From Candidatus Saccharimonadia bacterium (GTDB lineage Bacteria; Patescibacteriota; Saccharimonadia; UBA4664): a DNA stretch of 64,000 bases. The stretch's first letter is position 1. Every line of letters begins with the position of its first letter. The translations under genes and the position numbers were made by a program. This document shows, piece after piece, positions 2,225 to 48,624 of the stretch. The DNA lies in NCBI GenBank assembly GCA_035544015.1, contig DATKIP010000076.1:256299-320298 (forward strand). Direction: 5' to 3'. Below the pieces are notes generated by a model, which worked only from the letters and a program-made list of their open reading frames with translations, made no database searches and was not told the DNA's origin.

Positions 2225-2304
2225 AGTAATGAAATCTCCTTTTGGCTTCATTAATACCAAAGAAGAATGAACTGTTTATTAATTAAGTACCGGTTTCAAT
2301 ATGG

Positions 2305-4317
2305 TTAGGCAACCACGAGATATTCAAAATTGAGCAACGATCCGCCCGCCAGCGCGTTGCGCGTGGACACCGTAAATCCGGCGGTGCTGCGCGCCGACAC
2401 GTACAGATTGGCGGCTACGGCCGAGTGGTCGGTGAGCATAATCGTCAGCGGTGCCACGGCGTACGGCCTCGAAAACGTCACCGTGGCAATGGCGCCGGGC
2501 GCGGTGGGGGAGGGGCGCACCGCGGCCACGATATTGCCCGCCACATCGCGCACCTGCACCCCCGGGTTAGCGTAGCTCACCTGCGCGCCGGGCGTCACGT
2601 GCGGGGGCGTGCCTACCACCACGGGCCGGCCGTTAGAATCAATCGACAAGCCTTGAATAGCGAAGGCCTCGTCCTGAAACTCCAGCAACCGGTTGGTGGC
2701 CGTGCTCGTAGGCCGCACGATGGCCAGACCCCGGTCGCCCTCGACCGCCGCCTTGATGAGCATGGCAATCCCCGTAAACGGCGTAGCATTAATGCCCACG
2801 TAACCTTTGGTGGCCTCAATCTGGAACTTCCCTCCCGCGAACCGCGCCGCGCCCGTAGCCCCGATAATCCGCCATTTTTCAGTCGTGAAGGCATCGGAGT
2901 AGCCCACCACATCCACCGCATTCACTGCTTGCAGCGCCGGCCGGGTGGGGTTATCGTCGATTTTTACCAGGGTATTGCCCGTAGTTTGATCCGTCACCCG
3001 AAACGAGCCCGGATACAGCAGTGGAACGTTAAGGCCGGTCATCGGGCTGCTGCCGAGTACTTGGCTAAAGTTGCCCAGCCCATCGGTGCTGCTATCCGTA
3101 TTTGACCACAGCGTGGTGACCGTCACGTCTACCACCCCGGGCTCCACCCAAATGGTGGCATGCGAAGGAACGCCAGTGGTGTAAAACGTCGTGATTTCCT
3201 GATACATATGGGGAGCGTTGCCGATAATATGTGCCACCGAGCTGGCGATGCCCGGTACATCTCCCCAGTGCACAAACACGTCCGACATAAAGATATGCGA
3301 AGCGTTATCCAGTATCACATCGATGGGCGTGGAGTAGCCTGCGTCAAAGCCGGTAACGGCCACATACAATTGGTTCACAAAGATAACCGTGGAATTTTCC
3401 AGCGCCTGAATGAACGGCCCGGCGGCCACGAGCGTTTCCATTTTGCACGAGACGAAGAAAATACCATTGAGCAATTCCGTGGAGCCACCAAAGGTTCCGT
3501 CCAGCCGGACCGCACCGTTGCGAAAACCCTCCCAGCGGCAGCAAGTGAAGTAGATCTGGTTGGTGTTATCGTCGCTGAAGCCAAACGTACCGGGCTCCGT
3601 GCTATTGCGCAGCAGCGTGCAGGCCTCGGTAGCCGAGCCACAATCTTCCCACGCACACTCGATAAACCGCGTATCCCAGACCTCCACAAAATCGATAGCC
3701 GCTCCCACGCAATGAATGAAATTTATCTGCCCATACAAGCAGGTGTCGGCATAATACGACCGCAGCAATGGCCCGGACATGAAGTTGCCGCTAAGCATGA
3801 TGTTGTTGATGGAGGCGTAGCGGATGTGGCCGATTTTGGTGCCCGATCCGCTAATGGTAATGAGCGGAGCGTTGCCGCTCTTGCGCACAATCCGCGTCGC
3901 CCAGCGGCCATCGCCCAAGATGTTGGTGCCTTTATTGCGCAGGACGAGGCCGGTGACCATATAGACGCCCCGGGGCAAAAAGATGGTGCCGCCGTTGACG
4001 GCCGCATCGATGGCCGATTGGATGGCCGCCGTGTCGTCGGTGGCGCCGTCGCCCTTGGCGCCGTAATTGCTCACATCCAACACCGTATCGGCCCGCCACT
4101 TCAGATTGACTCCGTCGTTCGATAGCACAAAATTGCCGATAGCTTGCCCGGCGGGGTTGATCGTTTTCAGATCCCCCAGCCCCACTGTCGCCGCCGCCAA
4201 CGTGCTCACCGCCTCCGCCCGCGGCGTCCCATCCGGATTGTGCGCCACCAACAAAAAATCATTTAATACTTTAGCCCAAACGTCGTGATCGCCGCCTGGC
4301 TTGGGAAGCCGTGCCAT
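2305..4317 (-). CDS. Right-handed beta-helix protein (pectate-lyase-3 / tailspike-like fold), paralog 2
   Basis: 670 aa ORF with AGGAG SD. Same conserved N-terminus MARLPKPGGDHDVWAKVLNDFLLVAHNPDGT, beta-helix motif NYGAKGDGATDDTAAIQSAIDAA, conserved C-terminal module. Estimated >80% identical to paralog 3. Confidence 0.75.
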   Translation of the reverse strand: MARLPKPGGDHDVWAKVLNDFLLVAHNPDGTPRAEAVSTLAAATVGLGDLKTINPAGQAIGNFVLSNDGVNLKWRADTVLDVSNYGAKGDGATDDTAAIQSAIDAAVNGGTIFLPRGVYMVTGLVLRNKGTNILGDGRWATRIVRKSGNAPLITISGSGTKIGHIRYASINNIMLSGNFMSGPLLRSYYADTCLYGQINFIHCVGAAIDFVEVWDTRFIECAWEDCGSATEACTLLRNSTEPGTFGFSDDNTNQIYFTCCRWEGFRNGAVRLDGTFGGSTELLNGIFFVSCKMETLVAAGPFIQALENSTVIFVNQLYVAVTGFDAGYSTPIDVILDNASHIFMSDVFVHWGDVPGIASSVAHIIGNAPHMYQEITTFYTTGVPSHATIWVEPGVVDVTVTTLWSNTDSSTDGLGNFSQVLGSSPMTGLNVPLLYPGSFRVTDQTTGNTLVKIDDNPTRPALQAVNAVDVVGYSDAFTTEKWRIIGATGAARFAGGKFQIEATKGYVGINATPFTGIAMLIKAAVEGDRGLAIVRPTSTATNRLLEFQDEAFAIQGLSIDSNGRPVVVGTPPHVTPGAQVSYANPGVQVRDVAGNIVAAVRPSPTAPGAIATVTFSRPYAVAPLTIMLTDHSAVAANLYVSARSTAGFTVSTRNALAGGSLLNFEYLVVA

Positions 4318-4337
4318 ATCTATACTCCTATTATTAA

Positions 4338-6350
4338 TTAAGCTGCTACGGTGTAGTCAAAGTTCAGAATCGAGCCTCCGGGTAGGGGTGAGCGTGTCGA
4401 TACTACAAAGCTGCTGCCGCTGCGGGCCGAAACGTACAAGTCCGCGGCAATGGCCGAGTGGTCGTTGATGGCGATAGAGAGCGGAGCAGCGGCGTAAGGC
4501 TTGGAAAAGGTAATCCGCACAATGGTGCCTGGTGCCGTGGGGCTCGGCTTCACGGCCGCCGTGATGTTGCCGGCAATGTCGCGCACCTGATCGCGCGGGT
4601 TGGCGTAGCTCACTTGAGCACCGGCCGTCACCGTCGCCGGAGTGCCCACAGCCACCGGGCGGCCACTGAAGTCGAAGGCCTGCCCCTGGAGCGTGTTGGT
4701 TTCATCCTGAAACTCCAAGAGCCTACCGACCGCCGCACTGGTGGGCCGCACAATCGCCAGCCCCCGGTCGCCGGCCGCCGCGGCTTTCACGAGCATGGCA
4801 ATCCCCGTAAACGGCATAGCATTGATCCCCACATAGCCTTTGGTAGGCTCAATCTGAAACTTCCCGCCCGCAAACCGCGCCCCGCCCGTGGCACCGATAA
4901 TCCGCCATTTTTCGGTGGTGAAGGTGTCGGAGTAGCCGATCAAGTCCACGCCGTTCCCCGCCTGCAGCGCCGGCCGGGTAGTATTCGCATTAACTTTTAT
5001 CAGTGCGCGGTCTGTGACCTGGTCGGTAATCTGAAAGGCGCCCGGATACTCCAGCGGCACGTTCAGGCCGGTCATCGGGCTGCTGCCCACCACTTGGCTG
5101 AAGTCGCCCAAGCCGTCGGTGCTAGTAGGCGCATTCGACCACAGCCTCGTAATCGTCACATCGGAGGCGGCCGTCTCGGTCCAGATTGTAGCGTGCGAAG
5201 GAACGCCGGTGGTATAGAAGGTGGTGACGCTCTGATACATATGCGGCGAGTTGCTCATAATGTGTGCCACCGAGCTCGCGATACCCGGCACATCCCCCCA
5301 GTGCACAAAGATATTCGACATAAAGATATGCGAAGCGTTGTCCTGGATCACGTCAATGGGCGTGGAGTAGCCCGCATCAAAGCCGGTGACAGCCACATAG
5401 AGCTGGTTTACGAATACCACCGTCGTATTATCGGTCGTCTGAATGAAGGGCCCAGCCGCCACAATCGACTCCATCTTGCACGACACAATGAAGACTCCGT
5501 TGAGCATCTCCGTGGAACCGCCAAAGGTCCCGTCCATCCGAATCGCGCCGTTGCGAAAACCCTCCCAGCGGCAAGAGCTAAAGTAAATTTGGTTAGTATT
5601 ATCCCTGCTGAAGCCAAAATTTCCCGGAGCCGTGCTATTGCGCAGTAAGACACAGGCCTCAGTCGCCGAACCGCAGTCTTCCCAGGCGCACTCCAGGAAG
5701 CGCGTATCCCAGACCTCCACAAAGTCGATAGCCCGGCCGACCGTGTGAATGAAATTTATCTGCCCAAATAAACACGTATCAGCATAATACGACTGCACCA
5801 ATGTGCCGGGCATAAAGTTGCCGCTGAGCATGATGTTGTTGATGGACGCATATCGCAAATGCCCAATCTTGCTGCCCGACCCGTTCATCGTAATCAGCGG
5901 AGCGTTGCCGCTGAGCCGCACAATCCGCGTCGCCCAACGGCCGTCGCCGAGGATATTGGTGCCTTTGTTACGCAGGACGAGGCCGGTGACCATATAGACC
6001 CCGCGTGGCAAAAACACCGTGCCGCCGTTGATAGCTGCGTCGATGGCCGATTGGATAGCGGCCGTGTCGTCGTGGATGCCGTCGCCGACGGCGCCATAGT
6101 TCGTCACATCCAGCACCGTCGCGGCCTTCCACTTCAGGTTGATCCCGTCATTCGACAGCACAAAGTTCCCGATCGCCTGTCCCGCCGGATTGCTTGTTTT
6201 CAGATCCGCCAACCCCACCGTAGCCGCGGCCAGCGTGCTCACTGCCTCCGTGCGCGGTGTGCCGTCCGGATTGTGCGCCACCAAGAGAAAATCGTTTAAT
6301 ACTTTGGCCCAAACATCGTGATCGCCGCCTGGCTTGGGAAGCCGTGCCAT
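4338..6350 (-). CDS. Right-handed beta-helix protein (pectate-lyase-3 / tailspike-like fold), paralog 3
   Basis: 670 aa ORF with AGGAG SD, near-duplicate of 2305..4317. Follows the Wzx gene by 3 nt. Confidence 0.75.
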   Translation of the reverse strand: MARLPKPGGDHDVWAKVLNDFLLVAHNPDGTPRTEAVSTLAAATVGLADLKTSNPAGQAIGNFVLSNDGINLKWKAATVLDVTNYGAVGDGIHDDTAAIQSAIDAAINGGTVFLPRGVYMVTGLVLRNKGTNILGDGRWATRIVRLSGNAPLITMNGSGSKIGHLRYASINNIMLSGNFMPGTLVQSYYADTCLFGQINFIHTVGRAIDFVEVWDTRFLECAWEDCGSATEACVLLRNSTAPGNFGFSRDNTNQIYFSSCRWEGFRNGAIRMDGTFGGSTEMLNGVFIVSCKMESIVAAGPFIQTTDNTTVVFVNQLYVAVTGFDAGYSTPIDVIQDNASHIFMSNIFVHWGDVPGIASSVAHIMSNSPHMYQSVTTFYTTGVPSHATIWTETAASDVTITRLWSNAPTSTDGLGDFSQVVGSSPMTGLNVPLEYPGAFQITDQVTDRALIKVNANTTRPALQAGNGVDLIGYSDTFTTEKWRIIGATGGARFAGGKFQIEPTKGYVGINAMPFTGIAMLVKAAAAGDRGLAIVRPTSAAVGRLLEFQDETNTLQGQAFDFSGRPVAVGTPATVTAGAQVSYANPRDQVRDIAGNITAAVKPSPTAPGTIVRITFSKPYAAAPLSIAINDHSAIAADLYVSARSGSSFVVSTRSPLPGGSILNFDYTVAA

Positions 6351-36358: not shown

Positions 36359-39300
36359 CTAATCCTCGCGCTCGCACCAAGCGCGCGCATTCTGAAACAT
36401 CCGCAGCCACGGACTCGCCTCAAACCCCTGCCATTCCGTCGGCAGCCACGGCCACTGCCATAGCGCATTGGCCATGCGCTCCGGGTGCGGCATCATGGCC
36501 AGATGGCGGCCGTCGGGTGAGCACAGCGCCGTGATGCCTTCGGGGCTGCCGTTGGGGTTAAACGGATAGGCCGTGGTCGGCCCGCCGTCGGGCTCCACAA
36601 AGCGCAGGGGCGCCAAATTGCCCGCACGAATATCGCGCAGCACCTCCGGCGTCGGCACGTGCAGCCGGCCTTCGCCGTGCGCCACCCATACCCCGAGCCG
36701 CGAGCCCTCCATGCCAGCGAGCATGATCGCCGGGCTCGGTCCAATCTCTACCGTTGCCAGCCGCGACTCAAACCGGCCCGACGCGTTCTGCACAAACCGC
36801 GGCTTCTCGTCGTCCGGCAGCTGCGCAAACGGCGCCCAACCCAACAGTGCCATGAGCTGCGCCCCGTTGCATACGCCGAGCGAAAACGTGTCGGTGCGGG
36901 CATAAAAGCTCGCAAACTGATCCGCCAGGACCGGGTTAAATCGAATGACTCCGGCCGAACCCTTACCCGCGTCGAGCACGTCGCCAAAGGAAAACCCACC
37001 CGGAAACGCCACGCCGCGAAATTGCTCCAACCCCACGCTGCCCGTTAGCAAATCGCTCATGGTAACGTCCCAGGCCTCAAAACCGGCCGCCACAAACGCC
37101 GCCGCCATCTCGCGGTCGCCGTTGGTGCCGGCTTCGCGCAGCACCGCCACCTTGGGCGCCGCCAATCCCGGCCCAATAACGGTCGCCGCGGAGGGCGAGA
37201 CCGGCTTAAAGGTCAAATGCCAGCGCGGATTCACGCGCGGCGCGGCCATCACCGCCGCCTCATCGGCCACCAGTTTGGGGTTGGCCTGGAGCGCGTCGAG
37301 TCGGCTACTAGTGGCTTCCCAGAGCCCGCGCAGCTCGTGCAGCGGTACATCGACCAGCGCGTGGCCGCCGGCGCTCACGCGCACCGGAGCGCCCGCCTCG
37401 CCCACGCGCCCCACCGTGGTGTGCGCTACGCCGTCGCTGTCGAGCTCAGCCCGCACTGCCTCGGCCGCGGCCGGCGCCACTTCGAGCAGCACGCCCAGTT
37501 CTTCGCAAAACAGTGCCGCCAGCGGCTCCTCCGCACCCGGCAGCTCAAGCTCCAGGCCCAGGTTACCCGCCAGTGCCATCTCGATAGCCGTCACCACCAA
37601 GCCGCCGTCGCTGCGGTCGTGGAGCGCGCGCACGCGACCGCGCCGAATCAGCCCCTGCACGCTCACAAACGCTTGCCCCAGCACGGCCGGGTCATCGAGG
37701 TCGGGCGCCTCGTCGCCGATTTGCCCGTAGGCCTGCGCCAGCGCCGAGCCACCCAGCCGTGTGTGCCCGCCGCTCAAATCTACCAATATCAAAACATTGC
37801 CCGCACCCTTAAAATCGGGCGTGATTTTTTGGCGTACGTCCGGCATCACCGCATACGGCGCTACCACCAGCTGCCCCGGCGCCTTCACCATACCCCCTGG
37901 GGTTTGAGCGGCCATCGAGAGGCTGTCCTTGCCACCGTCCACCGCCATCCCCAGCGCGGTCATGGTGTCGCTCATGGCGACCGCCGCTTCATAGAGCCGC
38001 GCGCCCTCGCCCTCGAGCTTGGCCGGCCACATCCAGTTGGCGCTGGCCCGCACATCGCCCAGGTCCGAAATCCGCGCGCCCATCAGGTTGGTAATCGCCT
38101 CGCCCACCGTCATGCGGCCCTGCGCGCCCGGCGAGACCAGCCCAATGAGCGGCCGCTCGCCCTGGCTCACCACGGTACCGCTGTTGCCAAAGAGGCTATG
38201 CGCCACCACGCCGTAATCCGCCAGCGGGGTCTCGAGCGGTCCCACCCCTTGCTGCTGCGCGACGAGCCCGGTCACGCTCCGGTCAACCTTGCGCGTCAGC
38301 CAGCTTTTGGAGCCCACGCTCACCAGCCGCAGTACCCGCTCGAGCGCCTGGCGCACCGTCAGGTCGGCGGGCAACTTCAGCGGCCGCAGCACTGGCGGCT
38401 GCGTGGTGAGCTCCACCGTTTTGGCCACCGAGTCACCCAAGACAGCCTCAAGCGGCAGGTTTACCGGCGTCGTATCGTCGGTCGCATCGTGCACCACCAG
38501 CTGCCCATCACCGGTGATTTCGCCCACCACTGCCACCGGCGCTTTCTCGCGCGCGCAAATTGCCTCAAACCGCGCCAAATCCTCGGGCCGCAGTAGCAGC
38601 GCATCGCGCTCCTGCGATTCATTGCCCCAGATTTCCAGCACCGACAGCGTGGCGTCGCCCACCGGAATCGCGCGTAGCTCGATACGCCCGCCCACGGGGT
38701 TGGCAATCTCCGGCAGGGCATTCGAATCGCCGCCGGCGCCTAAATCGTGCGCCGACACAATCGGGTTACTCGCGCCCAGCTCCACGCAGGTGCGAATCAC
38801 GCGCCCCAGCCGCTGCTCCATCTCGGGGTCGCCGCGTTGCACCGCATTAAAATCGAGGGCCGCCGAGTTGTCACCGCTCATGAGCGAGCTGGCCGCACCT
38901 CCGCCCATGCCGATCCGGTACGCCGGGCCACCCACCTGCACGATGAGCATTCTTGGCTCGGGAAGGCCTTTTTCGGCATGATTCGCATCAAGCATACCCA
39001 CGCCCTCGCTGTACATCACCGGCTTAAACCATGCCCGGTAGCCGCCCGGCGTGGTTTGGCCGAACGTCCGCACGTGTCCCAAGAGCACCGGCTCGCCAAA
39101 GCAGTTACCGTAATCCGAGGCGCCATTCGAAGCCTCGATCAGAATGTCGAGCGGCGAAGCCAAATTCTCCGGATGCGCCACGCCGTCTTTCTCCCAGGGC
39201 AGTTCGTAGCCGGGAATGTGCAAATTCCCCACGCTGTAGCCCACCCCGCTCGCCACCACTAGGCCACCCCGCCCCACCGCCTGATTGTCGCGAATCCGCC

Positions 39301-40246
39301 CGCCGGTACCCGTGGCCGCGCCCGGGTACGGCGCAATACCCGTCGGGAAGTTGTGGGTTTCGGCCGTGAGCGTGGGATGATACGTGCGGTCGTCGATCAC
39401 AAATCGACTCGCCTCACCCGGCCGGCCTGGCGCCATCACATGCACCCGCCGACCCTCGATAGCCGAACTATCGTCGTGAAATGCGATCACCGAATTATTC
39501 GGGTTGGCCCGCCACGGCGCCTTCACGATCTTCATGAGGCTCGTATCGAGCGGCCGGCCGTCAAGCACCAAGCTACCCCGAAAAAACCCGTGCCGCGCGT
39601 GCTCATTATTGGCTTGGCCAAGGGAAAATATCTCAACATCCGTCGGGTCACGCTGCAACCGATTTACGAATAATTCCGCGTAACTGGCCATATCCTGCTC
39701 ATCCATAGCCAGCCCAAATTCCTGGTTGGCCCGGCGCAGCGCCTCGATACCGTCGCGCAGTACCGGCACGGTGCGCACCGGCTCCGGCGCCCCGCTCACC
39801 GCCAGCGTGGCCGGCGCCTCATGGTACGGCTGCTGGGTCATGCGGTCGGCCAGCGCCGCCTCGAGCTGGCCGCGCTCATCCGGCCCCAGCCGCTTCGAAA
39901 ATCCCAGCCGCCGTGCCCGCTCAATCCGGATCACGCTGTCAAGCCCCACCGCTCGGCAAATCTGGCGCGCGGTACTCGCCCACGGCGTCTCAAAGTTCAG
40001 TCGCGGTCCGATCTCGATCACGCTCGGATGCTCGGTCAAAAAAGACGCCTCGCGCGTCCCCCAAGGGTCAAATGTCTCGCCGAGCAGCCACTGGAGCTGC
40101 CCAATTTCGCCTTCGCTGAGCTGCCGCGCCGTCTCCACGTAATACACCCACTCGGCCTGTACTGACCGCGGCGCCGCGATTCCAGCCGCTTCCAGTTGGC
40201 TCAATTCACGCGCCCGCAGTTTGTCTCGGCGATGAAACTTGTACAC
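36359..40246 (-). CDS. purL: Phosphoribosylformylglycinamidine synthase, single-chain large form
   Basis: 1295 aa, collinear with E. coli-type PurL including the C-terminal glutaminase domain (GVCNGAQLMALLG, MMPHPER). Confidence 0.9.
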   Translation of the reverse strand: MYKFHRRDKLRARELSQLEAAGIAAPRSVQAEWVYYVETARQLSEGEIGQLQWLLGETFDPWGTREASFLTEHPSVIEIGPRLNFETPWASTARQICRAVGLDSVIRIERARRLGFSKRLGPDERGQLEAALADRMTQQPYHEAPATLAVSGAPEPVRTVPVLRDGIEALRRANQEFGLAMDEQDMASYAELFVNRLQRDPTDVEIFSLGQANNEHARHGFFRGSLVLDGRPLDTSLMKIVKAPWRANPNNSVIAFHDDSSAIEGRRVHVMAPGRPGEASRFVIDDRTYHPTLTAETHNFPTGIAPYPGAATGTGGRIRDNQAVGRGGLVVASGVGYSVGNLHIPGYELPWEKDGVAHPENLASPLDILIEASNGASDYGNCFGEPVLLGHVRTFGQTTPGGYRAWFKPVMYSEGVGMLDANHAEKGLPEPRMLIVQVGGPAYRIGMGGGAASSLMSGDNSAALDFNAVQRGDPEMEQRLGRVIRTCVELGASNPIVSAHDLGAGGDSNALPEIANPVGGRIELRAIPVGDATLSVLEIWGNESQERDALLLRPEDLARFEAICAREKAPVAVVGEITGDGQLVVHDATDDTTPVNLPLEAVLGDSVAKTVELTTQPPVLRPLKLPADLTVRQALERVLRLVSVGSKSWLTRKVDRSVTGLVAQQQGVGPLETPLADYGVVAHSLFGNSGTVVSQGERPLIGLVSPGAQGRMTVGEAITNLMGARISDLGDVRASANWMWPAKLEGEGARLYEAAVAMSDTMTALGMAVDGGKDSLSMAAQTPGGMVKAPGQLVVAPYAVMPDVRQKITPDFKGAGNVLILVDLSGGHTRLGGSALAQAYGQIGDEAPDLDDPAVLGQAFVSVQGLIRRGRVRALHDRSDGGLVVTAIEMALAGNLGLELELPGAEEPLAALFCEELGVLLEVAPAAAEAVRAELDSDGVAHTTVGRVGEAGAPVRVSAGGHALVDVPLHELRGLWEATSSRLDALQANPKLVADEAAVMAAPRVNPRWHLTFKPVSPSAATVIGPGLAAPKVAVLREAGTNGDREMAAAFVAAGFEAWDVTMSDLLTGSVGLEQFRGVAFPGGFSFGDVLDAGKGSAGVIRFNPVLADQFASFYARTDTFSLGVCNGAQLMALLGWAPFAQLPDDEKPRFVQNASGRFESRLATVEIGPSPAIMLAGMEGSRLGVWVAHGEGRLHVPTPEVLRDIRAGNLAPLRFVEPDGGPTTAYPFNPNGSPEGITALCSPDGRHLAMMPHPERMANALWQWPWLPTEWQGFEASPWLRMFQNARAWCERED

Positions 40247-40358
40247 CCATACTCCCCATCATTTAGCCGTATCTTGGTTTATCCGCCGGGCTTCGTCAAT
40301 CCTTACTTTGATCTGGTGTCGATAACCGCTAAACTTATGAAGTAATGTTGCGGAACAA

Positions 40359-40925
40359 ATGACCAAACTCGCCGTGATGGTGTCGGGCGTGGGCTCGATA
40401 CTCGAGGCTATACTCGAATCCGGCCTCCAGGTATCGTTGGTAGTGGCCGACCGCCAGTGTCGCGGGCTCAAATTGGCGGCCGATGCCGGGATTCCGGTCG
40501 AGCTCGTCGAACGTAGCAACTACGGCCATAGCTTCGACCGCCTGGCCTATTCACACCGCCTCGCCGGCGTGCTCAAAGCCCACCACATCGATCTTGTCGC
40601 CATGGCCGGCTTCATGACCGTCCTCGATAAGCCGATTTTTGACCATTACGAAGGCAAAATCCTCAACACCCACCCCTCGCTTCTGCCGGCCTTTGCAGGC
40701 GAACGAGCGGTGCAAAATGCCCTCGATTACGGCGTCAAATTGACCGGCTGCACCATCCACATCGCCACCATCAAGCTCGATGACGGCCCCATTTTGGCCC
40801 AGGAAGCCGTGCCGGTATTGGCCGGCGACACGGCCGAATCGCTCCAGGAGCGCATCAAGCAAGTGGAGCGCCGGCTGTATCCCGAAACTATCCGCCACCT
40901 AATCACGAAAGCGAGCCCCGTATGA
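40359..40925 (+). CDS. purN: Phosphoribosylglycinamide formyltransferase
   Basis: 188 aa: LAVMVSGVGSILEAIL, N-10-formyl-THF binding block NTHPSLLPAFAG, HxxD. Confidence 0.85.
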   Translation: MTKLAVMVSGVGSILEAILESGLQVSLVVADRQCRGLKLAADAGIPVELVERSNYGHSFDRLAYSHRLAGVLKAHHIDLVAMAGFMTVLDKPIFDHYEGKILNTHPSLLPAFAGERAVQNALDYGVKLTGCTIHIATIKLDDGPILAQEAVPVLAGDTAESLQERIKQVERRLYPETIRHLITKASPV

Positions 40926-42025
40926 GTAAACCCGGCCTCAAATACGCCGACACCGGCGTTGATTATAGCGCCCTCGACCCCTTTAAGCGCCTCGCCCAGA
41001 CGGCGGCCGCCCAGACCGCCGGCAATGCCCAGCGCCTCGGTTTCACCGAGCTATCATCGAGTCGCGGCGAGAGCGCCTACCTCATTGAGGCCGCCGACCA
41101 CTTCATCGCTCATGTCGAGGAGGGTCTCGGCACCAAAAACCTCGTGGCCGACGCCGTGCATGAGCTCACCGGCCGCCAGTATTATGACGCCATCGCCCAA
41201 GACACCGTCGCCATGATCGTCAATGACATGATCACGCTCGGCGCGCTGCCGGTCTCGGTGGCCATGCACGCCGGCGTCGGCGACACACGCTGGTTTGCCG
41301 ACGAGGCCCGCGCCGCCAGCCTCGTGGCCGGCTGGAAGCACGCCTGCGACCTGGCGCGCGCCGTGTGGGGCGGCGGCGAGTCGCCCGGGCTCACCGGCGT
41401 GGTGGAGCCCCACGCCGTGGTGCTGGCCGGATCGGCCGTGGGCGTCATCAAGCCCAAAGACCGCCTCATCACCGGCAACATCGCCGCCGGCGATGCCATC
41501 GTGATGTTTGCCAGCACCGGCATCCACGCCAACGGCCTGTCGCTGGCCCGCAAAATCGCCCAGTCCACCGGCTACGACGCCACCTTGAGCGACGGCCGCA
41601 CCTACGGCGAGGCGCTCCTCGATCCCACGCATATCTATGTCCCCGTTATCGAGGACGTGCAGGAGGCGGGCATCAAACTCCATTACGCCGTCAACATTAC
41701 CGGCCACGGCTGGCGCAAGCTCATGCGCGCCGTCGAGCCGTTTGTGTACGAAATCGACACCATCCCCGAGCCGCAGCCGGTCTTCACCTTCATGCAGGAG
41801 CACGGCCCGGTCGACGACGCCGAAGCCTACGGCAACTTCAATATGGGCGCCGGTTTCGCCGTGTACGCTCGCCCCGAAGACGTCGCTCGCATCATCGAAG
41901 TCGCCGCCAGCCATAGCATCAAGGCGTGGCTAGCGGGAACTATCCGCAAAGACGCAGATCAGAAAAAGGTCGTCATCAAGCCAAAAAACCTAACGTACGA
42001 AGGAGACTCACTCGGTGTCCGCTAA
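40922..42025 (+). CDS. purM: Phosphoribosylformylglycinamidine cyclo-ligase (AIR synthase)
   Basis: 367 aa. YADTGVDYSALD N-terminus, AIRS and AIRS_C domain blocks. 4-nt overlap with purN. Confidence 0.9.
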   Translation: MSKPGLKYADTGVDYSALDPFKRLAQTAAAQTAGNAQRLGFTELSSSRGESAYLIEAADHFIAHVEEGLGTKNLVADAVHELTGRQYYDAIAQDTVAMIVNDMITLGALPVSVAMHAGVGDTRWFADEARAASLVAGWKHACDLARAVWGGGESPGLTGVVEPHAVVLAGSAVGVIKPKDRLITGNIAAGDAIVMFASTGIHANGLSLARKIAQSTGYDATLSDGRTYGEALLDPTHIYVPVIEDVQEAGIKLHYAVNITGHGWRKLMRAVEPFVYEIDTIPEPQPVFTFMQEHGPVDDAEAYGNFNMGAGFAVYARPEDVARIIEVAASHSIKAWLAGTIRKDADQKKVVIKPKNLTYEGDSLGVR

Positions 42026-43454
42026 CCGCCCCCTCATCCCCAATGTCCTAGCCGACCGCTACGCGTCCGTTCCCATGCTCGAATTATGGACCGACGAAGC
42101 CCGCGTGGTGCGCGAACGCCGGTTTTGGCTGAGCGTGCTGCGTTCACAAATCAAGCACGGCCACGATGCGCCTGCCGGAGCCGTGGCCGACTATGAGAAG
42201 GTGATCGACCAGGTCGACCTCGCCTCCATTCGCCGCCGCGAGCTGCGGCTCCACCACGACGTAATGGCGCGTATCGAGGAATTCAACGCTCTCGCCGGCC
42301 ACGAGCTCGTCCACGTGGGCCTCACCTCGCGCGACGTCACCGAAAACACCGAGCAGGCGGCTATTCGCGACTCACTCACCCTGATGCATGGCCGGCTAGT
42401 GGGCACCCTGGCCCGCCTCGACCGCCTCGCCCGCGAGTATCGCGACCTGCCCGTGGCCGGCCGCAGCCACAACGTGCCGGCGCAGGTCACCACGCTCGGC
42501 AAACGTTTCGCCACCGCCGGCGAGGAGTTACTCCTGGGCATTGAGGCGCTCGAGGATTTGCAGGCGCGGTACCCGCTGCGCGGCATTAAGGGCCCCATGG
42601 GCACGGCCGCCGACCAGCTGCAGGTGCTCGGCGGCGACCCGGCCGCCGTCGGCGCCCTCGAGGCCGACATCGCCGCCGAGCTCGGTTTCGAGCATGTCTT
42701 CGGCAGCGTCGGCCAAGTGTACCCGCGCTCGCTCGATCTGGCCGCGGTCGACGCACTCATCCGCGCGCTAGCGCCGCTCTCAAGCCTCGCCACCACCATC
42801 CGCCTCATGGCCGGCAACGGCCAAGCCACCGAAGGCTTTGCCAAGGGCCAGGCCGGTTCCAGCGCCATGCCGCACAAAATGAACGCCCGCTCCTGCGAGC
42901 GCGTCCACGGCCTCTACGCTGTGCTCGGCGGCAGTCACGCGCAGCTAGCGGCCATCACCGGCGACCAATGGTACGAAGGCGACGTCACCTGCTCGGTGGT
43001 GCGCCGGGTCGCTCTGCCCAATGCCTTCTTCGCAGCCGACGGCCTGGTGCAGACCATGCTCGCCGTACTCGATTCGTTTGGCGCCTACCCGGCCGTCATC
43101 ACGGCCGAGCTCACTACCTACCTACCGTTCCTAGCCAGCTCCAAAATCCTCATGGCCGCAGTCGCGGGGGGTGTCGGCCGCGAAACCGCCCACGCCGCCA
43201 TCAAGGAGCACGCCACGGCCGTGGCCAAGGCCATGCGCGAATCCGGCGCCACCACCAACAACCTCGTCGACCGCCTCGCCGCCGACGACCGCCTCGGCCT
43301 CACCGCCGCCGAGCTCACCAGCCTCATCCACGCCGAGCCGCTCAGCTTCGCCGGCCTGGCCCGCGAGCAAGTCGACACCTTCCACGCCCGCGCCGCCACC
43401 GTCCTCGAAGCCCACCCCGAAGCCGCCAAATATGTACCGGAAGCAGTACTTTAG
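42015..43454 (+). CDS. purB: Adenylosuccinate lyase
   Basis: 479 aa, fumarate-lyase family with the signature region GSSAMPHKMN. Overlaps the purM stop. Confidence 0.9.
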   Translation: MSANRPLIPNVLADRYASVPMLELWTDEARVVRERRFWLSVLRSQIKHGHDAPAGAVADYEKVIDQVDLASIRRRELRLHHDVMARIEEFNALAGHELVHVGLTSRDVTENTEQAAIRDSLTLMHGRLVGTLARLDRLAREYRDLPVAGRSHNVPAQVTTLGKRFATAGEELLLGIEALEDLQARYPLRGIKGPMGTAADQLQVLGGDPAAVGALEADIAAELGFEHVFGSVGQVYPRSLDLAAVDALIRALAPLSSLATTIRLMAGNGQATEGFAKGQAGSSAMPHKMNARSCERVHGLYAVLGGSHAQLAAITGDQWYEGDVTCSVVRRVALPNAFFAADGLVQTMLAVLDSFGAYPAVITAELTTYLPFLASSKILMAAVAGGVGRETAHAAIKEHATAVAKAMRESGATTNNLVDRLAADDRLGLTAAELTSLIHAEPLSFAGLAREQVDTFHARAATVLEAHPEAAKYVPEAVL

Positions 43455-43521
43455 CGAACCATCACGCTAGGGTATAGCGGGGTTGTCCTGTTTTGTAATA
43501 CCTCTAGTGCTGCAACAGTAG

Positions 43522-44160
43522 TTACTCTATAAAACCAGCAGCCTTTGCCTCTGCTTCCAGCCGTAGCGTCTGTGCAGTGATAGTCTCATACAACCTAGCG
43601 TCAACTGTCTTCGCAAAAGGCAAATAGAAATTCTTCGTTTCATCGAGGTAGATCGTGACCAGCTCTTTACCAAATGTCATTGCCCAGTGGAGATTATCAA
43701 TCCTATCTAAAAGCTTAATAATTTTTGCTTCGTGTGGTGCAGATTGAAGGTTTTTAAAATACGCTCCATTGACTCTCTGGCGCTTCTGAGTTTCGGAAAA
43801 TTGCCCTGCTACGCTTGGCTTAGAAAGCGACATAACAATTTCGCAGATGTGGCTTCCAAAAATACTTCTTAGTTCGGCTTTGGTAAAACTGGCGTCATCT
43901 TCGATGCAATCATGCAGCAAAGCACTGGCAACAAACTCTTCTGTCACCTCGTTTGCTAGAAAATTAATAGTTAAGGTGGTGACGGGGTAAATATGCTCAG
44001 TAAGGTAGGGTTGTCCATCTTCTCGGAGTTGACCGGTGTGCGATTTAATTGCTTGTTCGAGGGCACGCTCAATAAGCGCGGTGAGACCAACTGCGGACCG
44101 ATCGATACGGTTTCTGAGCTCGGCTTCTGTAACACTCTCAGGGATTTGCATTATCTGCAT
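43522..44160 (-). CDS. HD-domain small alarmone hydrolase, (p)ppGpp pyrophosphohydrolase-like (RelA/SpoT HD domain only)
   Basis: ORF trimmed to MQIMQIPESV. Blocks HTGQLREDGQPYLTEHIYPV, ALLHDCIEDD, IIKLLDRIDNLHW match the SpoT/Mesh1 hydrolase domain. Lies in a low-GC island. Confidence 0.6.
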   Translation of the reverse strand: MQIMQIPESVTEAELRNRIDRSAVGLTALIERALEQAIKSHTGQLREDGQPYLTEHIYPVTTLTINFLANEVTEEFVASALLHDCIEDDASFTKAELRSIFGSHICEIVMSLSKPSVAGQFSETQKRQRVNGAYFKNLQSAPHEAKIIKLLDRIDNLHWAMTFGKELVTIYLDETKNFYLPFAKTVDARLYETITAQTLRLEAEAKAAGFIE

Positions 44161-44194
44161 AATAACAGGTTCGAAAGTGATTCCTTGGTTGGGC

Positions 44195-44229
44195 AAAAAA
44201 TGACAAAAATTGTCAAAAATTCCCCATGC
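44195..44229. repeat. Copy 2 of the conserved AT-rich palindromic element (AAAAAATGACAAAAATTGTCAAAAATTCCCCATGC)
   Basis: About 35 nt upstream of the HD-domain gene start and about 12 nt downstream of the PRTase-domain stop. Approximate coordinates. Confidence 0.6.
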
Positions 44230-44240
44230 GACACGCCGGA

Positions 44241-44642
44241 CTATACATTCTCCCAAAAAAAGTGAGGCGGATTTCCGTCGCACGTCTCACCCACGAAGTC
44301 CGGCAGAAGACCACCATTCGAAGCAATTAAGACGCAACTTTTTGCCATACCTCCGCGCTCCCGAACCAGAGCAACCGCCTTGCGCGTGAGCAGCCCGCGC
44401 TTACTCGCGTCATCCACTACTAGTACCCGACGTCCCGTGCAATCGCCCAACGTTGCCAACTCATCGAGATGATAGTCGCCAGTATCGTCCTTGTAGACGG
44501 GCAGACCAATCACGTTCCGGCTACGTATGCCCAGCCGCTTAGCAAGGACGGCCGCCGTCGGAAACCCACCCGTGCTGAGTCCAATGATCGTATCAGGCGC
44601 AAACCCCTCGGCCTCAATTTTGGCAACGACGAGCTCAATAAA
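44241..44642 (-). pseudogene. Gpt-like (xanthine-guanine) phosphoribosyltransferase domain with no start codon of its own, in frame with the upstream hydrolase across a single TAG
   Basis: 133 codons: FIELVVAKIEAEGFAPDTIIGLSTGGFPTAAVLAKRLGIRSRNVIGLPVY...RVLVVDDASKRG..., collinear with E. coli Gpt residues ~13-150. No ATG/GTG/TTG between the TAG (44643-44645) and the conserved core. Same reading frame as 44643..45575. Confidence 0.5.
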
Positions 44643-45575
44643 CTATTTCCCCTTGAGCCAATCTATAATGTCTTGGATTGCTGCCCTGCCCATTTTAGTT
44701 GGGCTTGATGTAAAGCCATGGGCAGCTTCGGGGTAAACTCGTAAATCCACTTCATTGCCGGCCGCTGAAAGCCTAGCAGCCATAGCAAAGCTATCTTCCA
44801 TCAAGATATCTGCCGTACCCACTATTATCAACGCCGGCGGTAAGCCTTTTAAATCGCCATAAAGTGGTGATATATCAGATTGTGTTTTGTCGACAATCTT
44901 TCCAGCATATGCCTGAATAAAATACTCGTCAGCATATAGCCTCCCACCTGGTGTTTGACCGCTCAAATCATATGCACCAAATTGTAAAACTGCACCAACA
45001 AATCGGGCTAAAAGCTTGTCATCACGCAGCCGAAGCAAAGTAGTCATCGCCAATGTTGCGCCTGCTGAAGAACCGCCGATTATAAGGCGTGCTGTTCCAA
45101 ACAATTGCTCAGCTTGCTCAGTCAACCAATGGGCCACAGTAGCACAGTCATCGGGAGCAGCAGGCCAAGGGTCTTCGGGTGCTAGTCGGTACTCAACGCT
45201 TATTACCGCCACTTCTAAAGCATCTGCAAGATAAGCATTTTGTACATCGTTTCTCGCAGCCTCGTTGAGGTAAAAGCCCCCGCCGGGAATATTGAGGTAT
45301 ACACCTTGCGCCTTACCTTTCTTCGGCTGAATTATCCGTACAGGAACTTCTCTGCCATATGCTTCAACAATTGCTTCAGTAATGTTACGGTCTGTTAGCG
45401 TGTCGGATGGTTTACGGGCATCTCGAGCCTCCTGTAGCCCATCAGGAGTAGTCAAATCAGGCTGCTTTTTATTGGGCTTAGCGGCTTTCCTAGCTTCGTA
45501 GAACTGCTTGCTCTCATCTGCAAGAGATTTCATTTCAGGGTCAATAAGCTGGTTTAGTCCGATTTGCATACTCAC
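44643..45575 (-). CDS. Alpha/beta-hydrolase fold-3 esterase/lipase (HSL/Aes-like)
   Basis: 310 aa. HGGG-type oxyanion motif (NIPGGGF), nucleophile elbow GGSSAG, C-terminal His region. Low GC relative to its surroundings. Confidence 0.7.
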   Translation of the reverse strand: MSMQIGLNQLIDPEMKSLADESKQFYEARKAAKPNKKQPDLTTPDGLQEARDARKPSDTLTDRNITEAIVEAYGREVPVRIIQPKKGKAQGVYLNIPGGGFYLNEAARNDVQNAYLADALEVAVISVEYRLAPEDPWPAAPDDCATVAHWLTEQAEQLFGTARLIIGGSSAGATLAMTTLLRLRDDKLLARFVGAVLQFGAYDLSGQTPGGRLYADEYFIQAYAGKIVDKTQSDISPLYGDLKGLPPALIIVGTADILMEDSFAMAARLSAAGNEVDLRVYPEAAHGFTSSPTKMGRAAIQDIIDWLKGK

Positions 45576-45693
45576 TTATTATACTGTGGTTTGGCTTCTG
45601 ATTGATTAACCATCCCTGCCCGATTGCCCAGGTACCGCTTGTGTCGCCGTTGGGTTAAAATAATCTAGAAAGCTAGTGAAGGAGCCACAAACC

Positions 45694-46176
45694 ATGACCC
45701 TCGTACACATCGTTCTCGGCAGCGCCAGCGACCTCGAAGCCGTCAAGGCCGCCGGCATGACCCAAACCCTAGACACCATCGGCATCTCCAGCGCCGTATC
45801 CGTTTGCAGCGCCCACCGTAACCTCGAAGAGCTCGGTACCTTTGCCACCGAAGCCGTCCAAAACGGCGCCCAAGTCTTCATCGGGGTCGCCGGCATGGCC
45901 ACGGCGCTTCCAGGTGCGCTCGCCGGCCTCACCACCATGGCCAAGCCCATCATTGGCGTGCCCCTCGACGAGCACGGCATCGACTCGTGTATCTACATGC
46001 CGCCGGGTGTGCCCGTGCTCACCGCCGGCGTGGGCAAATCCGGGCTCAAAAACGCCGCCATCGCCACGGCCCAAATTCTCGCCGTAAACGACCCCGCCAT
46101 CACCGAAGGCCTAGCCACATTCCTCGCCGCCTCCAAAAAGCAGCCGCAATTCGACATTAAAGAAGGGAGCAAATAA
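45694..46176 (+). CDS. purE: N5-carboxyaminoimidazole ribonucleotide mutase / AIR carboxylase catalytic subunit
   Basis: ORF trimmed to MTLVHIVLGSASDL (AAGGAG SD 9 nt upstream). PurE blocks GSASDL, AHR, GVAGMA. Confidence 0.85.
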   Translation: MTLVHIVLGSASDLEAVKAAGMTQTLDTIGISSAVSVCSAHRNLEELGTFATEAVQNGAQVFIGVAGMATALPGALAGLTTMAKPIIGVPLDEHGIDSCIYMPPGVPVLTAGVGKSGLKNAAIATAQILAVNDPAITEGLATFLAASKKQPQFDIKEGSK

Positions 46177-47018
46177 TGGCAGACGCGCAAGTCAAACTGG
46201 CCGAAGGCAAAACCAAAGTCATCTGGGACGCCGGCGACGGCAAAGTCACGATTGAATCCAAAGACGACATCACCGCCGGAGACGGCGCCAAGCACGATAT
46301 GCTCGAAGGCAAAGCCATCACCGCCAACCAGACCACTTCAAACGTTTTTGCCCTTCTCAAAGCCAAAGGTCTGGCCACCCATTTCATTGAACGCACCGCC
46401 GACCGCGCCTTCAAAGCCCGCTCAGCTAAGATGATCCCGCTCGAGCTCGTCGCCCGCCGCATCGCCACCGGTTCGTATCTCAAGCGCCGGCCGGACGTAA
46501 AGGAAGGCACCATTTTCGGCGATCTCGTGGTGGAATTCTTTGAAAAAGACGACCCCAACCACGATCCTCTGGTGATTTTCGACTTCGTCACCGGGCGCTT
46601 GTTGCGTTATACCGCCAGCAAGCCCCTGGGCGAAGGCTTTATGAACGAACAGCCCCTGGCCGAAACCATATTTAAAGACCTCGACGCCCCCCAAATCCTT
46701 ACCCTGGTGGAGCTCACCAAGCAGGCTTTTGAAGTTCTCGAAGCCGCCTGGGCCGAGCAGGAGGTAACCCTCGTGGACCTCAAAATAGAGGCCGGCCGCG
46801 ACGCCGAAACCGACGAATTATTCATCGCCGACGTGGTCGATAACGACTCCTGGCGCATCTGGCCCGGCGGCGACAAGTCCCAAATGAAAGACAAGCAAGT
46901 TTACCGCAACCTCGCCGGCGTGGACGATCCCGCCGCCAAGGCCAAAGAGCTCGGTAAAATCAAACAAAATTACACCTGGGTGGCCGAAGCCACTGAAAAA
47001 TTCAGCCAGGGCGAATAA
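46176..47018 (+). CDS. purC: Phosphoribosylaminoimidazole-succinocarboxamide synthase (long form)
   Basis: 280 aa. SAICAR synthetase blocks (EGKTKVIW, IPLELVARR, VDLKIE). TAATG overlap with purE. Confidence 0.85.
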   Translation: MADAQVKLAEGKTKVIWDAGDGKVTIESKDDITAGDGAKHDMLEGKAITANQTTSNVFALLKAKGLATHFIERTADRAFKARSAKMIPLELVARRIATGSYLKRRPDVKEGTIFGDLVVEFFEKDDPNHDPLVIFDFVTGRLLRYTASKPLGEGFMNEQPLAETIFKDLDAPQILTLVELTKQAFEVLEAAWAEQEVTLVDLKIEAGRDAETDELFIADVVDNDSWRIWPGGDKSQMKDKQVYRNLAGVDDPAAKAKELGKIKQNYTWVAEATEKFSQGE

Positions 47019-47019
47019 T

Positions 47020-48624
47020 TTGAAATCACGCACCGCCCTCATCTCCGTCTACGACAAAACAGGCATTGCCGACTTTGCCAAGACCCTTACCGAACTCGGG
47101 TGGCAAATTTACTCATCGGGCGGCACCGCCAAGGCGCTCACTGCCGCCGGCGTGCCCGTCACTGACGTAGCCGAGCTCGTAGGCGGAGAGGCGATTCTCG
47201 GCCACCGGGTGGTCACGCTCTCGCGCGAAATCCACGCCGGCCTACTCGCCCGCGACACGCCCGAAGACCGCGCCGAGCTCGAACGCCTCAGGGTGCCGTA
47301 CATCGACCTCGTATGTGTCGATCTCTACCCGCTCTCGGGCGAAATCGCCAAACCCGGCTCCACGCCCGAATCCGTCATCGAGCAAACCGACATCGGCGGC
47401 CCCACCATGCTGCGCTCCGCCGCCAAGGGCCGCCGCATCGTCATCGCCCGACCCCAGCAGCGCACCGAAGTACTCAAATGGCTCCAGGCCGGCGAACCCG
47501 ACGCCGCCACCTTCCGCACCCGCCTCGCCGCCGCGGCCGAAGCCGTAGTCGCCGACTATGCGCTCACTTCGGCCCGCTACACCTCCCGTGGCCTCCACGA
47601 CGGCCTCGTGGGCACCCAAGTCCTAGCCGCCAAATACGGCGAAAACGCCTGGCAAACCCCGGCCGGCCTCCATACCACGGATTCAAACGATCCGCTCGCC
47701 CTCGACCGCTTCGAGCTCGTCGCCGGCGCCGCCCCCAGCTACAACAACCTGGCCGAGCTCGACCGTCATCTCCAAACCATCACCCACATCGCCGCCGGTT
47801 TCGAGCAAAACTTCGGCCGCGTCCCGGCTATCGCCCTCGGCACCAAGCACGGCAACCCCTGCGGCGCCGCCGCGGCCGAAACGCCCGCCGACGCCATCAA
47901 AGCCATGGTCACCGGCGACACCCGCGCCATCTTCGGCGGGCTCGTCAGCACCAACTTCGAAATCGACGAAGCCCTCGCCGAGCTCCTCCTCACTCACTGC
48001 CAACCTGCCGGCCGCCGCCTCCTCGACGCCGTCATCGCGCCATCATTCACGCCCGAAGCCATCGCGCACCTCAGTCGCAAAGGCGACAAATGCCGCTTCC
48101 TCGCCAACCCCGAGCTCGCCAAAATCGGCAAAAATTCCCTCAACTCAGCCCCGCACCTCCGCCCCGTCCGCGGCGGCTTCCTGCGCCAACCCGGTTACAC
48201 ATTCATCCTCGACCTCAAGGATCCCAACCTCACCACCACCGGCACCCTCTCAGGCGACCAAGCCAAAGACCTCATCCTGGCTTGGGCCGTCGGCAGCACC
48301 TCCAACTCCAACACCATCACCCTGGTCAAATCCGGCCAACTCATTGGCAACGGCGTCGGCCAGCAAGACCGTGTGAGCTGCTGCGAGCTCGCGGTCAAAC
48401 GCGCCACCGACGGCCAGCACGACATCACCGGCGCCGTCGCTTACTCCGACAGCTTCTTCCCGTTCCCCGACGGCCCCCAGGTGCTCATCGACGCGGGCAT
48501 CTCAGCTATCTGGTCCACCACCGGCTCCGTCCGCGACCACGAAACCACCGAACTCTGCGCGAAGCACCACGTTGCCCTCTACCAACTCCCCGACACCCAG
48601 GCCCGCGGCTTCTTCGGACACTAA
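47020..48624 (+). CDS. purH: Bifunctional AICAR transformylase / IMP cyclohydrolase
   Basis: 534 aa with a TTG start. ALISVYDKTG N-terminus (MGS-like IMPCH domain) and the C-terminal AICARFT domain. Confidence 0.9.
   Translation: MKSRTALISVYDKTGIADFAKTLTELGWQIYSSGGTAKALTAAGVPVTDVAELVGGEAILGHRVVTLSREIHAGLLARDTPEDRAELERLRVPYIDLVCVDLYPLSGEIAKPGSTPESVIEQTDIGGPTMLRSAAKGRRIVIARPQQRTEVLKWLQAGEPDAATFRTRLAAAAEAVVADYALTSARYTSRGLHDGLVGTQVLAAKYGENAWQTPAGLHTTDSNDPLALDRFELVAGAAPSYNNLAELDRHLQTITHIAAGFEQNFGRVPAIALGTKHGNPCGAAAAETPADAIKAMVTGDTRAIFGGLVSTNFEIDEALAELLLTHCQPAGRRLLDAVIAPSFTPEAIAHLSRKGDKCRFLANPELAKIGKNSLNSAPHLRPVRGGFLRQPGYTFILDLKDPNLTTTGTLSGDQAKDLILAWAVGSTSNSNTITLVKSGQLIGNGVGQQDRVSCCELAVKRATDGQHDITGAVAYSDSFFPFPDGPQVLIDAGISAIWSTTGSVRDHETTELCAKHHVALYQLPDTQARGFFGH

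Follow-up and report, generated by a model that had tools for sequence, protein, structure and literature searches.

An in-frame domain-stop-domain junction in a Saccharimonadia purine cluster is probably an acquired esterase gene followed by a 5′-truncated phosphoribosyltransferase remnant

In a Candidatus Saccharimonadia MAG of 60-65% GC, an esterase domain and a purine phosphoribosyltransferase (PRTase) domain stand in one reading frame on either side of a single TAG codon. This arrangement very likely consists of an esterase gene that was acquired horizontally and is complete up to its own TAG stop, followed by the remnant of a stand-alone purine PRTase gene, the two having been joined in a small foreign island. 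Read in this way, the junction is an ordinary, already-known kind of genomic debris and not a fusion or a case of recoding. Its main value is that of a negative result, in that an in-frame domain-stop-domain pattern mimicked a fusion, readthrough or phase variation; for annotation it is a caution that a native stop followed by a decapitated neighbour gene can look like an interrupted fusion.

A sequence-only reading of the same DNA had described the junction and the lack of a canonical start for the PRTase, and had offered a fusion gene, readthrough or a sequencing error as explanations. The description was correct, but none of the three explanations found support, and the simplest one, a 5′-truncated remnant in a horizontally acquired island, was absent from the options given.

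Geometry of the Junction

The window (the whole stretch of DNA analyzed, 64 kb) lies in contig k141_318506 (320 kb) of ENA ERZ27251635, in which the esterase and PurB are annotated as Candidatus Saccharimonadia at NCBI. The esterase and PRTase parts do share a frame with a single TAG between them, here located to the minus strand, and both domain assignments made from the letters were right, with a Pfam Abhydrolase_3 match followed by a match to PF00156 (Table 1). The esterase starts at ATG 45569, which is used by public gene calls, or at the in-frame GTG 45575 (308 or 310 aa), the ATG being the more likely start, and its stop is the TAG at 44645..44643. Past this codon the frame stays open for 133 sense codons (44642..44244) up to a second TAG at 44243..44241. 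The first in-frame ATG, GTG or TTG past the esterase stop is a GTG (codon 44, 44513) that follows the STGGFP loop, and with none ahead of it the PRTase indeed has no canonical start of its own. Stops close both remaining frames across the junction, and these contain neither a PRTase N-terminus nor PRTase similarity. The frame match between esterase and remnant is a matter of chance, to be expected in one of three cases for any junction, and is not significant alone.

Table 1. Coordinates of the junction, the island and the flanking purine genes, given as positions in the window.
Feature	Coordinates	Strand	Evidence or remark
Esterase gene, complete, 308 aa	44643..45569	minus	Abhydrolase_3 match; native TAG included
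PRTase remnant, Gpt-like type I purine, 5′-truncated	44241..44642	minus	PF00156; 133 codons + TAG
Candidate non-canonical initiation site	44637..44654	minus	Read directly from sequence; speculative
HD_4 gene, 212 aa, third gene of the island	43522..44160	minus	Pfam HD_4, TIGR00691
Low-GC mosaic island, ~40-58% GC	43480..45650		Composition profile, GC3
purB	42015..43454	plus	Left flank of island
purE	45694..46176	plus	Right flank of island

The Esterase and Its Native Stop

The esterase matches Abhydrolase_3 (PF07859) with 149.7 bits over profile positions 5-209 of 210, and the PGGGF oxyanion motif, the GSSAG nucleophile elbow and a C-terminal HGF (AAHGF) are readable in its translation. It thereby has the full domain, oxyanion motif, GxSxG and C-terminal His of the hormone-sensitive-lipase family, and shares the full-length domain and the motifs with members such as E. 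coli Aes and the LipP1-type enzymes. However, it scores below all NCBIfam equivalog cut-offs (best LipP1, 151.7 versus 350 bits), and is therefore placed at family level only. An identical protein is annotated as HVQ44359.1 in Candidatus Saccharimonadia, and the best 120 homologues span 256-353 aa.

The closest esterase homologue, encoded on a JGI contig (L008), has 79% amino acid identity to the window protein. Its gene ends in ...TGGCTTAAAAAGAAATAG and the window gene in ...TGGCTCAAGGGGAAATAG; both close with AAATAG at the same codon, and nucleotide similarity between them ceases directly past the TAG. Since the homologue has the same stop and the similarity ends there, the TAG is the ancestral stop of the esterase. 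Two further homologous genes (L009 and L010) also use a TAG stop, a few codons later.

What the PRTase Remnant Retains and What It Has Lost

The remnant matches Pfam Pribosyltran (PF00156) with E=1.5e-10 over positions 22-133 of 158, and its 41.0 bits lie above the gathering score of this type I PRTase family profile (cut-off 26.3). The PRPP motif VLVVDDASKRG and the LSTGGFP loop are both present and fall in invariant alignment columns. A functional type I PRTase would in addition have a complete domain, with its N-terminal segment, and a start of its own, and these the remnant lacks. Against the equivalog model for the xanthine PRTase Gpt (NCBIfam NF006613) it reaches 27 bits, with a cut-off of 138, and alignment with E. 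coli Gpt begins at Gpt residue ~14 and gives 32% identity over 103 aa. The label “Gpt-like” is therefore fair at the level of fold and family only.

We recovered 52 PRTase homologues from Saccharibacteria and other CPR MAGs, all of them single-domain proteins (108-191 aa) with at most 70% identity to the remnant. The full-length homologues (145-156 aa) carry 11-19 extra N-terminal residues with a conserved (I/V)VTLDKFNxL motif. Neither this motif nor the lost 5′ end was found in any of the six frames of the 64-kb window or upstream of the esterase, and the remnant is missing roughly its first 15-19 codons together with promoter, ribosome-binding site and start codon. A natural short isoform was considered as a precedent and rejected, as the 131-aa homologue in question (P0003) has a mis-called start, and on its contig MQHLKIVSLDKFNRLLHM... 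is encoded ahead of the Met that was called as start.

The transition between the two genes is sharp. Past the TAG there is a codon-by-codon alignment between the window and PRTase genes (TTT ATT GAG CTC GTC GTT... versus TTG TTG GAC GCA GTG ATT...), and ahead of it the window aligns with esterase genes only; the breakpoint therefore lies no more than a few bases from the stop codon.

In an AlphaFold2 model of a full-length homologue (P0012, pLDDT 87.9), helix alpha1 comprises residues 9-25, and the remnant begins at the position of the invariant L15, which is F in the window copy. Judged from this model, the remnant has lost the N-terminal tail and ~6 residues, about a third, of helix alpha1, and with a loss so small the shortened PRTase might still fold. 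Among PDB structures the P0012 model matches purine PRTases best, namely Sulfolobus HGXPRT 4zfn and Pyrococcus 1vdm (TM ~0.8); 1vdm was also recovered in a profile search (E=2.4e-6), and the archaeal purine PRTase 4trb aligns with the segment corresponding to the lost N-terminus. The remnant and its homologues have the type I PRTase fold in common with 1VDM of Pyrococcus horikoshii, 4ZFN and 4TRB GpT-1 of Sulfolobus solfataricus and E. coli Gpt. However, identity to the small 6-oxopurine PRTases is only ~20-30%, and the N-terminal segment is missing from the window copy.

A Foreign Island in a Variable Purine Locus

The junction is located in an island of ~2.1 kb (~43,480-45,650) that interrupts a de novo purine cluster in the order purL, purN, purM, purB, island, purE, purC and purH. 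The island holds three minus-strand genes: the esterase, the PRTase remnant and a gene for an HD_4 protein. Their GC3 values are 0.386, 0.586 and 0.434, respectively, versus 0.63-0.84 in 25 other genes of the window. The island is foreign in composition and internally mosaic, and its three pieces look independently derived. The GC3 of the esterase equals that of its homologues on contigs of ~45% GC, so that this gene looks recently imported. Conserved esterase-PRTase-HD_4 synteny in donor genomes was considered and rejected, as no two of the three genes were adjacent at any of the loci examined (five from CPR genomes, three around esterase homologues and one around an HD_4 homologue).

Related genomes with a purB-purE spacer (PurB identity 77-83%) differ in what the spacer contains. 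One (L011) carries a 379-aa protein without known function and others; a second (L016) an uncharacterized 230-aa protein, an aldehyde dehydrogenase and an EamA protein; in the third (L013) the spacer is empty and an inverted purE-purK follows directly after purB. As the cargo differs in each relative, the purB-purE site is a hot spot of gene flux, and a PRTase in the spacer was seen in none of the three related lineages, so it is not native to this site in any relative examined. With its mosaic three-piece island, the locus exemplifies ongoing gene flux on a small scale in an unusual lineage of Saccharimonadia that encodes de novo purine synthesis.

Signatures of a mobile element were looked for around the island; notable repeats, direct or inverted, do not flank it, and neither a tRNA nor viral or defense matches were found. 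The three island proteins matched none of the PADLOC defense models, which gives no indication of a defense system, and no relatives of them were found in viral contigs.

The HD_4 protein matches Pfam HD_4 (E=2.2e-13) and the N-terminal hydrolase region of TIGR00691, and resembles RelA/SpoT hydrolases and small alarmone hydrolases; a homologue of 188 aa (L017) is 44% identical and has a comparable N-terminus. Its gene adjoins the purine PRTase remnant downstream, and among the structures recovered by the fold search was a PRTase-like one with bound ppGpp (5vog). Purine PRTases bind (p)ppGpp. For a functional link between HD_4 and PRTase no synteny spoke at the loci examined. Between the stop of the remnant and the start of HD_4, at 44190-44225 on the minus strand, there is an imperfect, AT-rich direct repeat (ATTTTTGACA/ATTTTTGTCA) with a T-run behind it; the repeat includes a TTGACA hexamer. 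This repeat may be a promoter for HD_4; a consensus promoter scan did not call it.

Public gene calls miss the intact HD_4 gene and show only a 52-aa piece of it (43522..43680), together with a spurious opposite-strand ORF of 90 aa (43993..44265), and they omit the PRTase remnant altogether. The calls are poor across the island probably because its codon usage is foreign to the gene model of the genome.

Origin of the Remnant

An illegitimate recombination or a deletion that broke the DNA only a few bases from the esterase stop has probably joined the esterase and the PRTase remnant inside the mosaic low-GC island at the variable purB-purE site. Such a truncation would have removed the expression signals and the N-terminal codons of the PRTase. 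Most likely the remnant is untranslated, or translated at trace level only, and at most it would be a passive passenger on an esterase-HD_4 transcript. That the esterase had simply inserted itself into a PRTase gene until then intact was considered and rejected, as no 5′ PRTase piece lies upstream of the esterase and the six-frame motif search was empty.

The 133 codons of the remnant contain no stops and no frameshifts, and all family-invariant residues are retained. At sites with at least 95% conservation the remnant has three private substitutions, one of them the junction codon itself, compared with a median of one and a maximum of five in intact homologues. We infer that the remnant is still open and undegraded because little time has passed since the event, a recency shown by the island's unameliorated composition. 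Its intactness fits recency and fits continued selection equally well, and with the nearest PRTase homologue only 70% identical, synonymous sites are saturated.

Remnants of this kind have been seen before at the edges of acquired insertions or deletions, where 5′-truncated genes likewise lack promoter, ribosome-binding site, start and N-terminal codons. As in those cases, the window remnant abuts an unrelated intact gene in a foreign, variable locus and is absent from relatives. It differs from them in that its 133 codons are fully intact and lie in frame right behind an upstream stop.

Alternative Explanations

Expression of the remnant by reinitiation was considered as an alternative. Ribosomes ending at the esterase TAG, or binding an SD-like AAGGGGA (44654..44648), could reinitiate at the in-frame ATT (44639..44637), which is the second codon past the TAG, and produce an active PRTase of ~131 aa coupled to the esterase. 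The 9 nt between the two elements are comparable to the spacing of host SDs (AAGGAG or AAGGGAG at 6-9 nt), and the GGGG is found only in the 3′ end of the window esterase and not in homologous esterases. The undegraded state of the remnant, with all invariant residues present, and the limited loss of structure in the AlphaFold2 model, confined to the tail and ~6 residues of helix alpha1, would also agree with an active product. However, every full-length homologue has conserved the (I/V)VTLDKFNxL motif that the remnant lost; the corresponding segment is the one that aligns with archaeal 4trb, and the invariant L15 would be lost or replaced in an ATT-initiated product. In the bacteria studied, translation initiates very poorly at ATT, which counts against reinitiation at this codon. 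The arrangement occurs in no related genome, so that selection for it cannot be demonstrated, and recency explains the intactness equally, the island GC3 being unameliorated. Taken together, we consider reinitiation at the ATT unlikely. That the truncated PRTase is a working gene, translated by termination-reinitiation at the ATT from an SD that evolved inside the last codons of the esterase, seems to us quite improbable. If this were true, the PRTase would be a freshly rescued gene fragment with its expression enslaved to a foreign upstream gene, and coupled expression from the ATT, if shown, would count as a modest case of a truncated gene being rescued.

The junction or the whole island could also be an artefact, either as a chimeric join in a MEGAHIT metagenome contig or through a base error that produced the TAG or masked a start codon. 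In favor of this are the origin of the sequence from a MAG contig, the different GC3 of the three adjacent segments and the absence of the exact junction, with NNN allowed at the stop, from JGI metagenome contigs. In contrast, the identical 308-aa esterase with this stop and an identical PurC each occur on three contigs, mostly with the same neighbors (the contigs carrying the esterase may share reads). Host purine genes lie on both sides of the island, and several independent chimeric joins, linking sequences that differ strongly in composition, would be required. The suggestion of a sequencing error at the TAG gains nothing from these data: the codon equals the stop of the homologue, which makes a base error unlikely, and one such error cannot account for ~15-19 missing codons. 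An artefact is thus very doubtful.

An esterase-PRTase fusion gene, whether broken by a nonsense mutation, possibly phase-variable, or made by programmed readthrough or recoding of the TAG, is hardly credible: the two parts do share one frame with a single TAG between them, but that TAG is ancestral to the stand-alone esterase, and the PRTase part lacks its own N-terminus where a fusion would have it joined by a linker. Homologues were searched with each half, and the joined 441-aa sequence without the stop was searched against 1.84 billion cluster representatives. No fusion was found in 120 esterase homologues, in 52 PRTase homologues or in the best 150 matches of the joined sequence, each of which covers the esterase or the PRTase part and none both. 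In the six longest of the joined-sequence matches the additional domain is a second esterase or a TIM barrel and in no case PF00156. Intact fusion orthologues, which the sequence-only reading had proposed to look for in databases, were thus not seen in the best matches, and the homologues examined include no uninterrupted two-domain ORF.

TAG is an ordinary stop in the window and the commonest one, terminating 11 of 25 non-island genes, among them purL and purB (TAA, 9; TGA, 5). No tRNA was found within the 64-kb window and no Rfam family matched in 43,000-46,500, and the fold of the RNA at and behind the TAG is no more stable than that of shuffled sequence (z=+0.67). The proposed readthrough is left with no sign of programmed recoding in the window. 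Nor do the data bear out a phase-varied or nonsense-inactivated fusion: the stop is ancestral, fusion homologues are lacking among those examined, no tandem or inverted repeats occur at 44,600-44,700 that could serve as a switch site, and the TAG codon is no slippage product.

The Purine Cluster and Other Features of the Window

The purine genes around the island form a near-complete de novo cluster (purL, purN, purM, purB, purE, purC and purH; 36359-48624 and downstream), with purA nearby, downstream (in L007). Some Saccharimonadia were recently reported to synthesize nucleotides de novo (bioRxiv 10.64898/2026.09.16.751625). The closest relatives of PurB are a small set of MAGs (70-83% identical), and the next-best matches (61-65%) all belong to Actinomycetes, e.g., Motilibacteraceae, Kutzneria and Frankia. 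These similarities hint that the purine cluster was acquired from hosts among the actinobacteria, or else that there is a problem with binning or taxonomy.

Elsewhere in the window, three tandem genes of ~670-690 aa are encoded at 185-6350 on the minus strand, adjoining a polysaccharide-synthesis and glycosyltransferase cluster. Two of them have an N-terminal pectate-lyase-like domain (PF12708), and the second and third genes are 80% identical over all 670 residues, which points to a recent tandem duplication. A related 721-aa protein is encoded near a PRTase homologue in another genome locus (L004).
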